64,000 bases of DNA from a virus. Under the pieces are notes generated by a model. The model was not told the origin of the DNA. It saw only the letters and a list, made by a program, of their open reading frames with translations, and made no database searches. Positions 8,652 to 31,883 of this stretch are shown piece after piece (position 1 is the first letter of the stretch; each line of letters begins with the position of its first letter). The position numbers and the translations under genes are program-made. The DNA lies in IMG/VR virus record IMGVR_UViG_3300030108_004965, positions 96,001-160,000 of that record; one strand, written 5' to 3'.

Positions 8652-10220
8652 TCAACAAGCCACAATAGCATGGGACGTTGTCAATAAAGTTCCCGCAGCA
8701 CTCGTAGCATTACGCAAAGCGCACTTGGTAACTTTACAAGGATCAATGATTCCTTTCTCGTAGGTACTAGTCAGTTCCCTATTCAAAAAATCATAGCCAA
8801 TATCTCCCTCGCATGACTTTACGTTTTTAACTATAATGTCTGCAGACTCTCCAGCATTTGTTGCCATTTGTCTCAAAGGTACCTCGCATGCCTTTAGCAC
8901 CACTTGTGCACCCAGAGATTGTTCTTCATTGTCTGTCTCAACAAACAAGCCGGTGGTGGCTCTGAGTAAGGCTACTCCACCGCCCGGTACTATACCCTCT
9001 TCCTGCGCAGACCTAACAGCCTCTAGAGCATCATCAATACGGTGGCGCTTCTCAATCATTTCTACTTCAGTTTGAGCACCCACTTTGATCACCGCTACAC
9101 CCGATGCCAGTCTGGTTATTCTTTCCTGAAGTCTTTCGCACTCAGAAAGATTGTCTGTTTGTTTTATCAGTGCCTTTACGGTCTCGATTGTATCATCAAT
9201 CTTTTGATTATTTCCCTTGCCTCCGACAACTGTTGTCCAAGTCTTGGTTATATTAATGTTTTTGCATTGCCCAAAGTGATTGAGGGTAACATCTTTTAAG
9301 GTCAGAGAGTTCTCTCTTGTAATGAATGTTGCTCCTGTGCTGACGCACAAGTCCTTCATTATGTTTCTTCTCTCCTCTCCATACTTTGGTGCTTTGATAG
9401 CACACACCTTCATTGTACCACGGACTGCATTGGCAATGAAAGCAGCAAGGGCTTGACCTTCAATGTCGTTTGATATCAAAACCAATGGACGATTGTCTCT
9501 TGCGGCAAGTTCGAGTACTTTCATTACCTGTTCAATGTGTTCAACCTTTTCATCTGTCACAAGAATAAGCGGATTGTCATAGTTCACCATTGCGTTTCTT
9601 TGGTCTGTGATAAAGGTGTTGCTAGCATACCCAGAATCGAATCTAAAGCCTTCAATAAGGTCTAGTGATGTATTCATACTCCGAGCCTCTTCAACGAGCA
9701 CAGAACCATCTTTACCGGCTTTGTCAATAGCGGTTGCAATAAGTTTACCAATTGATTTATCATTGTTGGCAGAGATGGTTGCAATGTGTCTTATGTCCTC
9801 GACAGTTTGAATGGGTCTCGACATTTCTGTGAGTTTCTCTGTGATAACTTCGACTGCTTTATCCATGCCACGTTTTAATTCAACAGGAGATACACCTGCT
9901 GTCATATACTTTTGTGCTTCTTTTAAGATCGCACGAGACAATACTGTTGCGGTGGTTGTTCCATCACCAGCAGAGTTCACTGTTTCTTCTGCTGCTTGCT
10001 TGATCACTTGTGCTCCAAGGTTTTGGAACGGGTCTTCAAGTTCAATGAACTTTGCAATTGTCACACCATCTTTGGTGATGACAGGTAGATTCTCTTCTTT
10101 ATGGTATAGTGCTACATTCCGCCCTCGAGGACCGAGAGTGGTTGCAACATTATCCGCAAGAATGTCAACTCCCTCCAGAATCTTTTGGTTGAGAGTTTGT
10201 CCTTGGTCATAATGTTTCAT
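8652..10220 (-). CDS. groEL: Chaperonin GroEL
   Basis: TLGPRGRNV, ITKDGVTIAK, AGDGTTTAT, EEGIVPGGG, GIIDP; no GGM tail. Confidence 0.98.
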   Translation of the reverse strand: MKHYDQGQTLNQKILEGVDILADNVATTLGPRGRNVALYHKEENLPVITKDGVTIAKFIELEDPFQNLGAQVIKQAAEETVNSAGDGTTTATVLSRAILKEAQKYMTAGVSPVELKRGMDKAVEVITEKLTEMSRPIQTVEDIRHIATISANNDKSIGKLIATAIDKAGKDGSVLVEEARSMNTSLDLIEGFRFDSGYASNTFITDQRNAMVNYDNPLILVTDEKVEHIEQVMKVLELAARDNRPLVLISNDIEGQALAAFIANAVRGTMKVCAIKAPKYGEERRNIMKDLCVSTGATFITRENSLTLKDVTLNHFGQCKNINITKTWTTVVGGKGNNQKIDDTIETVKALIKQTDNLSECERLQERITRLASGVAVIKVGAQTEVEMIEKRHRIDDALEAVRSAQEEGIVPGGGVALLRATTGLFVETDNEEQSLGAQVVLKACEVPLRQMATNAGESADIIVKNVKSCEGDIGYDFLNRELTSTYEKGIIDPCKVTKCALRNATSAAGTLLTTSHAIVAC

Positions 10221-10241
10221 TGTTCCTCCATTGTTTTATAT

Positions 10242-10270
10242 AATATAACCTTATATTGATTGTTTGTCAA
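10242..10270 (-). promoter_or_regulatory. Sigma70-type early promoter (groEL)
   Basis: TTGACA-17-TATATT. Confidence 0.8.
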
Positions 10271-10271
10271 G

Positions 10272-30210: not shown

Positions 30211-30916
30211 CCTTTAGTTTCCTATATGACCATACGGCTGAAGGCCATAGGTCTGTTGCTATTTCCAGACAAGCATTGGCCACATCCTGTATCTCTTGTT
30301 GGGCACCCTCATGCGTCCTTAGGTCTATAAACTTCAGCAGATTATTTAAATTAACAGTCCCGTAATACTCAGTATACATGTTTTGAGGGAGAACCATTCT
30401 AGCCTGCTCGCGACACACACCAGCGGCCATCAACTGCTCAAAGAGTTCTTTAGCCATTCTAGTGTGCCGTTTTAAATAATCACTACAAGTTAAGCCAAAG
30501 TTAGGGTCAGACAAATCCGGATAAAGTATCGGATCTATTTGGTCTGGATTTGAAGACTGCCTGTTGGACTTATGCTGTGTACGGAATGCATCTGGGCAAT
30601 GAAAAGTAAGATCTTTATCTGTGTATCTTCTGGAAATTTCATTGTAACTCCAAGTACGGTGTCGCATATGTTGAGAGCGCACAAACAAAGGAACAACAAA
30701 CTTAAAGGTAACCACATTGTGCTCGAACGTGCTCGTATGTCTGTGTTTGACAAGATAGTTAATAAGTTTTTTATCTCGAGCATCCAAATCCTCCTTTTCT
30801 ACTCCAAATGAAACACGGGCGCTGTTCACGATTGTGAGGTCAGAGCCCATGTGGTCAATATATTGTACTTTGCCTATACCGTCTTCGTATAGGTCAATTG
30901 TTTTTTGATAAGACAT
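30203..30916 (-). CDS. thyX: Flavin-dependent thymidylate synthase
   Basis: NSARVSF, HTSTFEH, RHRTWSYNEISRRY, EQARMVLP, AQQEI. Confidence 0.97.
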   Translation of the reverse strand: MSYQKTIDLYEDGIGKVQYIDHMGSDLTIVNSARVSFGVEKEDLDARDKKLINYLVKHRHTSTFEHNVVTFKFVVPLFVRSQHMRHRTWSYNEISRRYTDKDLTFHCPDAFRTQHKSNRQSSNPDQIDPILYPDLSDPNFGLTCSDYLKRHTRMAKELFEQLMAAGVCREQARMVLPQNMYTEYYGTVNLNNLLKFIDLRTHEGAQQEIQDVANACLEIATDLWPSAVWSYRKLKGV

Positions 30917-30918
30917 AC

Positions 30919-31614
30919 CTACTCCTTGGATTGATATGCTTTTTCTGCTGAGTATACACCAGTTTCATCACCCATTGCAAGACTTGGGTCGTCGCTATTA
31001 AAGAAGGGAATCTGAAACTTCTTACCTCCGATAGCACTAAACAAATCTGGTGCGTCTTGTGCTACTTTCCCAGAAACAATAACATCTCTGTCGTCCACAG
31101 CATAATATTCTTGTGGACCAAACGCTGGTTCGTCAGAACCATCCGGTTCTGTCTGATAATAGGTCAACCTAAAGTAGACACTCGGTTGACCTTTACGATA
31201 ATTGCGTATTAATTTTTCGCCACCAATAACAGCAGCCTGACCGTATTTTTTTCCAAGATCAATTAGGTCTTGCTTTTTAATGTTCAGTACAAAATAACTT
31301 GTTTCATCACCGCCATACTTACCAGCAAGTTGAACATAATCAAGACCTGCTGAGTCTAGTGTGTTTCTTAAGTCACTCATTCTTTCTGCGTTAGATCCTT
31401 CGTCAGCAGACTCTCCTCTCGGGTTTTCCGCTGTTAGTATACCTATTCTCTGTAGTTCTGCTCGTGGGTTGGGATCCCTTAGCATTCCCAAGACTTGATC
31501 TAAGGACAAATCAACTTGTTTTTCAGTTAAAAAAGGACTCTCCAGCAACACAGATTTCTTTCTACTCTCTAGTATTACTTGTTTAATCATCTGTTTTAAA
31601 TTTTCTTTATTCAT
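30919..31614 (-). CDS. DUF3293-like protein with N-terminal extension
   Basis: ILTAENP.G...N...L...GG.E.S.FV...LG.KYGQ.AVI. Confidence 0.65.
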   Translation of the reverse strand: MNKENLKQMIKQVILESRKKSVLLESPFLTEKQVDLSLDQVLGMLRDPNPRAELQRIGILTAENPRGESADEGSNAERMSDLRNTLDSAGLDYVQLAGKYGGDETSYFVLNIKKQDLIDLGKKYGQAAVIGGEKLIRNYRKGQPSVYFRLTYYQTEPDGSDEPAFGPQEYYAVDDRDVIVSGKVAQDAPDLFSAIGGKKFQIPFFNSDDPSLAMGDETGVYSAEKAYQSKE

Positions 31615-31883
31615 TCCTTTAGTCTCCCGTAAACATAATTCTCTAACACTAGGTAATTAGTTTCTCCCATTGCTTTTACTTCTGATAGCATTCTTCTCTC
31701 GACAACTATTCGGTCTCCTATGTCAACATTTACAGTACAATCATCAGAGATCCCTAGGACATCACACACAACATATACAGATTGTGGAGTCTTAAAATCA
31801 TCAGGTAAAACGATGATTGAATTTTCCTTTTCTTCTTCTAATGGTAGAACAAGGATGTGCCTATTCTTTGGCTCAAGATACAT
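31611..31883 (-). CDS. groES: Co-chaperonin GroES-like
   Basis: LEPKNRHILV...IIVLPD...VDIGDRIV...YLVLE..VYG; RBS GGAGG. Confidence 0.8.
   Translation of the reverse strand: MYLEPKNRHILVLPLEEEKENSIIVLPDDFKTPQSVYVVCDVLGISDDCTVNVDIGDRIVVERRMLSEVKAMGETNYLVLENYVYGRLKE

Follow-up and report, generated by a model that had tools for sequence, protein, structure and literature searches.

The window analysed here is a 64,000-nucleotide stretch of viral DNA, bases 96001-160000 of a 191,696-bp virus record in IMG/VR (IMGVR_UViG_3300030108_004965) whose genome CheckV rates as 100% complete. At positions 8652-31883 it carries genes for a group I chaperonin (GroEL), a GroES-like co-chaperonin, a ClpP-family peptidase, the N-degron adaptor ClpS, a J-domain protein and a one-piece transfer-messenger RNA (tmRNA, gene ssrA), and a glutaredoxin gene lies close by. 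All seven are on the minus strand. An earlier reading of the sequence alone, made without database searches, had located the seven and taken them for a single coordinated toolkit of protein folding, turnover and ribosome rescue. The genes are real and intact. Their distribution among related complete genomes speaks against a single toolkit: the chaperonin pair, ClpP and the J-domain protein are fixed, and ClpS and the tmRNA, like an Hsp20 gene outside the window, come and go.

The genome has a GC content of 38.7%, with ~90% of its open reading frames (ORFs) on a single strand, and has genes for a tail sheath, tube and baseplate hub of T4 type and for a 608-residue gp23-like capsid protein. The nearest isolates by capsid protein are Microcystis phage Mel-JY01 (35%), Rhodothermus RM378 and the Flavobacterium 'immuto' phages. 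The window represents a widespread clade of marine T4-like myoviruses, uncultured and ~185-190 kb in size; searches matched at least ~600 viral contigs with the capsid protein and at least 562 with the ClpP family. When the 23-kb region was compared by megablast with 50,697 phage records, nothing matched. The public sequencing runs listed with the stretch are marine DNA metagenomes only, with no RNA run among them, and a run from an independent study contains 87% of the sampled words of a 7-kb stretch.

The region is otherwise one of replication and nucleotide metabolism (DnaE-type polymerase, DnaB, UvsX, SSB, ribonucleotide reductase, ThyX and two DNA methyltransferases). The polymerase of T4 belongs to family B, in contrast to the DnaE-type enzyme found here beside T4-type capsid, sheath and gp21 protease genes, which is conserved at 60-95% throughout the clade.

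Identity of the protein-handling genes

GroEL, the ClpP-like protein, ClpS and the glutaredoxin pass their Pfam cut-offs and the tmRNA is recognized by both ARAGORN and Rfam (Table 1), each where the sequence-only reading had placed it. The GroES-like and J-domain proteins score below the Pfam cut-offs and are backed by family profiles, the latter also by its invariant HPD motif and a co-fold with DnaK. Synonymous sites are saturated between relatives while the rate of nonsynonymous substitution (dN) is low, the J-domain protein excepted. The low dN against a saturated synonymous rate (dS), covariation in the tmRNA, the invariant ClpS pocket, the HPD motif and the co-fold support the view that the genes are functional.

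Table 1. Features of the region and related genes elsewhere in the genome; positions are those of the window unless marked as genome positions
Feature	Position	Strand	Basis and remarks
GroEL (group I chaperonin), 522 residues	8652-10220	-	Pfam Cpn60_TCP1 223.6 bits; phrog_5725 5.8e-143
GroES-like co-chaperonin, ~90 residues from Met13	31611-31883 (ORF to 31919)	-	profile homology
ClpP-family (S14) peptidase, 211 residues	12725-13360	-	Pfam CLP_protease 114.7 bits, cut-off 20.2
J-domain protein, 203 residues	27045-27656	-	HPD at residues 99-101
ClpS N-degron adaptor, 100 residues from likely start	25302-25604 (ORF to 25616)	-	Pfam ClpS 100.8 bits, cut-off 23
One-piece tmRNA (ssrA)	26675-27006	-	ARAGORN; Rfam RF00023 92.8 bits, cut-off 47
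Glutaredoxin	7287-7577	-	Pfam 29.6 bits, cut-off 22.9; CPFC site
Promoter before groEL	10270-10242	-	TTGACA-17-TATATT, sigma70-like
Promoter before tmRNA	27048-27020	-	TTGACA-17-TATATT, 14 nt before tmRNA 5' end; overlaps J-protein stop codon
Promoter before groES	31953-31925	-	consensus TTGACA-17-TATAAT, extended -10 TG
Terminator-like GC-rich hairpin and T-run	13380-13399	-	immediately upstream of ClpP ribosome-binding site
Endolysin-type amidase with peptidoglycan (PG)-binding domain	11834-12724	-	Amidase_2 67.6 bits; PG_binding_1
115-residue ORF (orf115)	14084-14431	-	most constant ClpP neighbour
Putative lipoprotein (orf321), between tmRNA and ClpS	25764-26660	-	start reassigned from sequence and relatives
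DnaE/Pol III alpha-type replicative polymerase, 1155 residues	17253-20720	-	phrog_405, 760 bits
ORF of 520 residues between amidase and groEL	10272-11834	-	no family match
DUF3293 protein	30919-31614	-	51.1 bits; directly downstream of GroES, 4-nt overlap
Peptidase_M78 (ImmA/IrrE-type) ORF, 150 residues	6947-7399	-	24.8 bits
Hsp20 small heat-shock gene	genome 53894-54316, outside window		42.2 bits
AAA_5 MoxR/CobS-like ATPase	genome 86394-87458, outside window		42.3 bits
T4 gp21-type Peptidase_S77 prohead protease	genome 169957-170574, late region		115.5 bits

The GroEL match exceeds the Cpn60_TCP1 cut-off of 34.3 bits and covers profile positions 1-487 of 490. The GDGTTT nucleotide-binding motif of the ATP site is at residues 85-90, and the C-terminal GGM tail is absent. 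As a single sequence the GroES-like protein falls short of the Pfam Cpn10 cut-off (18.3 against 21.1 bits) and matches phrog_3188 at 3.2e-5; a profile built from nine homologues leads to Cpn11 (7ekq_P) at 7.6e-7, with GroES chains next. Its likely start is Met13 at 31883, with GGAGG upstream, in agreement with the end coordinate given by the sequence-only reading. The mobile loop reads Ser-Ile-Ile-Val, and in relatives consists of G, T or S followed by three hydrophobic residues; Gly to Ser or Asn in this loop has been described for co-chaperonins that pair with viral GroEL (PMC5649160). The two genes lie ~21 kb apart under separate promoters and form no operon. Between relatives dN is 0.15-0.25 for GroES and 0.14-0.45 for GroEL.

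The ClpP-like protein is the sole CLP_protease in the genome. It finds 106 ClpP sequences in the PDB at E ≤0.001 (best 7.4e-20), aligned over the whole catalytic domain, and is ~30% similar to bacterial ClpP. Its active site consists of Ser117, His142 and, at the position of the catalytic Asp, Asn193. The same Ser-His-Asn arrangement, in place of a Ser-His-Asp triad, is found in all 80 of the loci examined, which are the best 80 of at least 562 related contigs; two more distant copies from the clade have Asp. The Pfam match begins at profile position 15 and leaves out the N-terminal ~37 residues, an extension rich in Lys and Glu; this end of the protein differs from the canonical ClpP axial-loop region. 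GroEL is encoded 0.7-4.2 kb from ClpP in 66 of the 80 loci (most of the others being incomplete contigs) and in all nine of the complete genomes described below. Some members of the clade, G001 and G006 in our numbering, have a second ClpP-family gene far from groEL (at 47292-47684 of the L098 region and at 21565-22050, respectively).

ClpS matches ClpS structures in the PDB at 7e-18. Its probable true start is the Met at 25604, preceded by GGAGG as in relatives, and a basic extension of ~19 residues stands ahead of the core. Residues N28, D29, D30, T32, M34 and H60 are invariant in nine phage homologues; they correspond to the N-degron pocket residues N34, D35, D36, T38, M40 and H66 of E. coli, and the protein also keeps a Lys equivalent to E. 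coli K84. Its dN/dS is 0.03-0.08 where dS could be estimated (dN 0.08-0.2). Bacterial relatives are 35-55% identical over many phyla and give no donor or host signal. In a set of 5.8 billion proteins, the 120 ClpS matches listed of 166 are metagenome sequences at 73-95% identity, with one exception labelled as a metagenome-assembled genome, and none among these 120 is a clear cellular homologue.

The tmRNA is full length, spanning positions 1-374 of the RF00023 model. The acceptor stem, GGGCUCG/CGAGUCC, contains the G3:U pair, and CCA is encoded. Among eight phage copies, 22 base pairs show compensatory changes, including pairs of the acceptor and T stems, and G3:U is invariant. The encoded tag is ANNNLYFEEALAA; the tmRNA of G001 carries another, ANDDVENFEDFALAA. 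The phage tags form a family, ANNNL[YF]F[ED]E(V)ALAA, all ending in ALAA. A degenerate pattern for the exact tag of the window matched none of 185,579 bacterial and archaeal species genomes.

The J-domain protein evolves faster, with dN of ~0.5-0.66, and its ORF is intact. It misses the Pfam DnaJ cut-off (15.1 against 27.8 bits, E 0.026), the match covering helices II-III only. Nine homologues, at 26-45% identity, all share H99, P100 and D101, and the top PDB matches of the family profile are J-domain proteins (best E 9.5e-6). An AlphaFold (AF2) model, with a predicted local distance difference test (pLDDT) score of 88.2, puts the HPD in a loop between helices 88-98 and 110-125, with long coiled helices N-terminal to it and a helical C-terminal part. 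With the whole model Foldseek found nothing at E ≤0.001, only coiled-coil and helical-bundle noise, and VIA-align matched residues 85-141 to generic three-helix bundles (Z 5-6.5), with no J-domains listed.

Residues 55-145 of the J-domain protein were also co-folded with residues 1-605 of E. coli DnaK, as a stand-in for the host protein. Against a best control of 0.02, the interface score ipSAE was 0.61; 58 of 80 solved complexes score that high, as do 2 of 110 mismatched pairs. At least 95% of contacts agreed in three runs, and partner pLDDT was at least 68. In the model, helix II, the HPD loop and helix III contact the junction of the DnaK nucleotide-binding domain, linker and beta part of the substrate-binding domain (J-protein residues 91-106 and 114-126 against DnaK 166, 208-215, 381-392 and 412-429). 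Since similar J-DnaK complexes have been solved and the predictor may remember them, we take this as modelled likeness to a J-domain and not as proof of binding.

The glutaredoxin had been counted among the proteostasis genes. It resembles the redoxins of phage ribonucleotide reductases (phrog_86, phrog_22), lies 4-6 kb from ClpP in 31 of the 80 loci, and to judge from these matches probably serves the phage ribonucleotide reductase rather than proteostasis. The 3' part of its ORF is overlapped by ~110 nt, in another frame, by the Peptidase_M78 ORF; one of the two starts is probably miscalled.

Fixed and variable genes among relatives

No SmpB, Hsp70 or Clp ATPase (AAA_2) was found in the whole 191,696-bp genome, which extends beyond the window what the sequence-only reading had noted for SmpB and ClpA/ClpX. 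A search of the same genome found no RF-1/ArfB-type factor, peptide deformylase, FKBP or integrase either, and its only AAA match is the MoxR/CobS-like AAA_5 protein.

Nine complete genomes of the clade, each at least 92% complete, were compared. GroEL, the GroES-like protein, ClpP and a J-like protein are encoded by all nine. ClpS, the tmRNA and Hsp20 are each present in five (Hsp20 in two copies in G001), and SmpB and a Clp ATPase with AAA_2 above cut-off in none. ClpS and the tmRNA occur together in four genomes; one has ClpS only (G025), one the tmRNA only (G001), and three have neither. Independent and sporadic occurrence, which the sequence-only reading had named as telling against a toolkit, is thus what is found for ClpS and the tmRNA; the chaperonin, ClpP and J core does not behave in this way.

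The tmRNA occupies three or more genome positions among relatives. It adjoins ClpS here and in G002, lies ~7 kb from ClpP, beyond the glutaredoxin gene, in G026 and three other loci, and has other positions in G001 and G029. The order GroES ... J-protein, tmRNA, lipoprotein, ClpS ... DnaE recurs in eight contigs that have a close ClpS; the tmRNA is seen in seven of them, and the eighth ends before that point. Two more distant contigs (L093 and L094) keep the J-protein, lipoprotein and ClpS, with tRNAs replacing the tmRNA. Here the J-protein, tmRNA and ClpS stand within 2.4 kb, inside a stretch of ~7 kb that separates orf302 from DnaE. These two genes are adjacent in four relatives (G001, G004, G006 and G007), and the ~7-kb stretch is therefore an insertion-prone island.

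Possible modes of action

We consider it probable that these genes are separate auxiliary modules leaning on host machinery, a fixed chaperone and peptidase core with mobile extras, rather than a single circuit. Because ClpA/ClpX, SmpB, alanyl-tRNA synthetase and DnaK are not encoded by the phage, the set must act through those of the host. Substrates, timing and effect on the host we infer as follows. By analogy with gp31/GroEL and gp23 of T4, the GroEL/GroES pair would most likely fold the 608-residue major capsid protein, along with other large proteins of the phage. The core J-domain protein would plug into host DnaK, and the core Ser-His-Asn ClpP, genetically tied to groEL, would need a host unfoldase and perhaps a host ClpP ring. 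The extras (ClpS, tmRNA and Hsp20) would have been added by sublineages in variable regions. ClpS is predicted to bind N-degron substrates and deliver them to host ClpA-ClpP, closing ClpA to its other substrates. The tmRNA, charged by host alanyl-tRNA synthetase and used with host SmpB, would increase the capacity for ribosome rescue and give stalled products a degron, ending in ALAA, for host ClpXP. The TTGACA/TATAAT promoters, strong GGAGG ribosome sites and AN(N/D)-type tags weakly suggest a proteobacterial rather than a Bacteroidota host.

Several points weigh against separate modules. The host ClpA that ClpS needs is an assumption. With Asn in place of the catalytic Asp, ClpP could be weakly or conditionally active, and the timing of ClpP may differ from that of the chaperone genes, because the endolysin gene adjoins it and a terminator-like hairpin precedes it. 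Eight independent contigs show the J-protein, tmRNA and ClpS in a tight cluster of conserved order, and ClpS and the tmRNA co-occur in four of the six complete genomes that have either, so that some functional coupling is possible.

A rival reading is an integrated circuit, in which the tmRNA tags, ClpS redirects host ClpA to chosen N-degron substrates, phage ClpP supplies or modifies the chamber, the host proteome is remodelled (for example by removal of defence proteins) and GroEL/ES and the J-protein fold phage proteins. Besides the clustering and co-occurrence just given, every tag ends in ALAA and ClpP is conserved, with its special active site. We nevertheless find this reading unlikely. 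Four of the nine complete genomes have ClpP but neither ClpS nor SmpB, three of them also lacking the tmRNA; ClpS and the tmRNA each occur without the other, and are >20 kb apart in G026 and G029. ClpS is also found in unrelated viral contigs (L092 and L095), the other genes being absent from its flanks. Further, the phage encodes no unfoldase, and ClpS inhibits ClpAP degradation of ssrA-tagged proteins (Dougan 2002, in the passage of PMC6102473 that cites it), so the tmRNA and ClpS arms are not obviously cooperating. The destruction of defence proteins had been proposed by the sequence-only reading; nothing found bears on it, and no link to defence proteins was found. The toolkit idea is tempered accordingly: shared location in one genome is not co-inheritance.

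The ClpP-like protein invites an explanation of its own. It might be a ClpP1-type subunit, a phage heptamer that stacks on a host ClpP ring to give a hybrid protease driven by host ClpX or ClpA, with altered activity or specificity. The precedent is ClpP1 of Listeria monocytogenes, which shares the Ser-His-Asn site, is inactive alone and active when stacked on ClpP2, the sole ClpX-docking partner (PMC9257651). Invariant Ser117 and His142 with Asn in all 80 best relatives, the non-canonical N-terminus and the lack of a phage unfoldase all fit such a role. For Listeria ClpP1, however, hetero-oligomerization and the absence of chaperone docking have been shown, whereas the phage protein is known from its sequence and is compared by analogy; Asp is found in the two more distant copies, and an Asn triad may work on its own. 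We regard a ClpP1-type role as doubtful.

A bolder form, which we rate as improbable, has the phage ClpP as a parasitic ClpP1-like ring on the host ClpP heptamer, turning it into a hybrid ClpXP/ClpAP, with sublineages that carry ClpS and a private-tag tmRNA also controlling substrate entry. If true, the phage would have taken over regulated proteolysis with no ATPase of its own.

Alternatively, the ClpP-like protein could be a processing protease tied to morphogenesis or lysis, one that cuts phage proteins outside ATP-dependent turnover. Its best PHROG matches are annotated as head maturation protease (phrog_94, 3.5e-18, and phrog_1684), and the endolysin-type amidase gene, which abuts it with zero gap here, is 0.5-0.8 kb away in 41 of the 80 loci. 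The amidase is a neighbour, not a proteostasis gene. As a head protease the ClpP-like protein was rejected: a dedicated T4 gp21-type S77 gene stands in the late region and is kept in relatives, the ClpP-like gene is ~48 kb from the capsid gene amid replication and early-type genes, and both PDB and Pfam match it to true ClpP along the entire catalytic domain. A processing role has little chance of being correct.

That the region is a chimeric assembly with bacterial DNA, a set of decaying host-derived genes or, for the tmRNA, a leftover attachment site is largely refuted and very improbable: the record is a metagenome assembly and ssrA is a frequent prophage attachment site, but the same gene order recurs in many independent contigs from different samples, the independent run contains most of the 7-kb stretch, the genes stand behind promoters of phage type, their ORFs are intact and low in dN, the full-length tmRNA shows covariation, the genome has no detected integrase, and the tag is absent from the bacterial and archaeal species genomes searched.

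Separate modules on a fixed core can be set beside what is known from other phages, where the kind of gene set is familiar. A survey of jumbo phages reported ClpP in some, ClpS in several others, DnaJ-domain proteins sporadically, and HSP60 and HSP10 in different phages, and already predicted that phage ClpS hands targets to host ClpAP (Iyer et al. 2021, PMC7824862). Phage Atu_ph07 has seven Clp-family genes, among them a Clp ATPase, of which there is none here (PMC6102473). ClpS is annotated in the PA5oct group, Salicola SCTP-2, Sinorhizobium Phosso and Vibrio phage 2.275.O, all jumbo phages, and the last has GroEL, ClpP and a ClpS-like gene together. By tblastn, 20 isolate phage records (mostly jumbo phages) have ClpS and 90 a ClpP-like gene, at only 29-45% identity to the genes here. 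Unlike the jumbo phages, with which it shares ClpP, ClpS, J-domain and HSP60 or HSP10 genes, the present phage is <200 kb, marine and T4-like, and has HSP60 with HSP10 and ClpP with ClpS together.

Marine virioplankton commonly encode chaperonins (Marine et al. 2017, PMC5649160), and ClpP is listed as a marine viral auxiliary gene (PMC5332604). Capsid folding is the expected task of the marine viral GroEL/GroES, of T4 gp31 with host GroEL and of phage EL gp146 (PMC7185714), as here; the present groES and groEL differ from the marine viral genes in lying far apart, with groEL linked to clpP. Huge phages carry one-piece tmRNAs, presumed to rescue stalled ribosomes, and some also SmpB, in contrast to the present clade (Al-Shayeb et al. 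2020, PMC7162821). For the J-domain protein the nearest parallel is Rki of the T4-related phage RB43, likewise a small J-domain protein of a T4-type phage, which functions via host DnaK and stabilizes sigma32 (PMC3486835). The J-domain here is internal (~85-140) in an all-helical protein, and no sequence kinship to Rki was seen, no comparison aimed at it having been made.

What is new is the occurrence of such genes as a fixed core in a phage clade of <200 kb, together with the joining of all parts in one genome, the linkage of groEL to clpP and the Asn conserved in ClpP. The searches define a large, abundant marine phage clade, in which four host-type protein-handling genes are fixed and three come and go, a natural experiment on the benefit of each gene. 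ClpS, the J-protein and the tmRNA, with its tag unmatched in the species genomes searched, are candidate tools to redirect bacterial proteolysis and chaperones. The most testable new lead is the Asn-type ClpP, which raises the biochemical question of why Asn is conserved in the active site of a ClpP encoded next to groEL.

Neighbouring genes and promoters

The ClpP neighbour orf115 is within 0.7-3 kb of ClpP in 73 of the 80 loci. Considered as a possible partner of ClpP, it was rejected; its sequence, judged by eye, resembles a ribbon-helix-helix regulator, and Pfam gave nothing significant. For the 520-residue ORF between the amidase gene and groEL, tblastn against six related records found nothing, and the ORF looks like an insertion specific to this genome. 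Two proteins of 402 and 305 residues, encoded between the portal-side genes and the capsid gene, have no PHROG or Pfam match.

The gene between the tmRNA and ClpS, orf321, was considered as a hidden SmpB or adaptor and rejected, as it has the features of a lipoprotein. With its start at 26660 the ORF does not overlap the tmRNA, and the protein begins MKYLLPLLMLSC; this N-terminus is a signal peptide containing a lipobox-like Cys, and a linker rich in Pro, Glu, Ser and Thr comes next. Conservation among relatives is 44-75%, and neither Pfam nor PHROG gave a match. The DUF3293 protein beside GroES is poorly conserved, at 33-94% in relatives.

The sequence-only reading had pointed to TTGACA-type promoters of their own before groEL, groES and ssrA. 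All three exist; their form is a generic sigma70-like one of this phage. A genome scan gave 33 promoter matches at ≥11 of 12 positions, against ~8 in shuffled sequence, and ~20 of the matches share the form TTGACA-17-TATATT/TATAAT on the coding strand. They also stand before DnaE, an endonuclease and SSB, and further copies in the window include 20766-20738, 22122-22094 and 40026-39998. By their sequence, the three promoters mark ordinary phage genes dependent on host sigma70 and not a specially regulated set. No such promoter was found directly before clpP or clpS, and no T4-type late motif, TATAAATA, upstream of any ORF. An 18-pair AT-rich hairpin at window positions 31907-31945 (minus strand) overlaps the -10 of the groES promoter and the first codons of the long ORF, and could be a stem-loop-like element at the promoter and early transcript.

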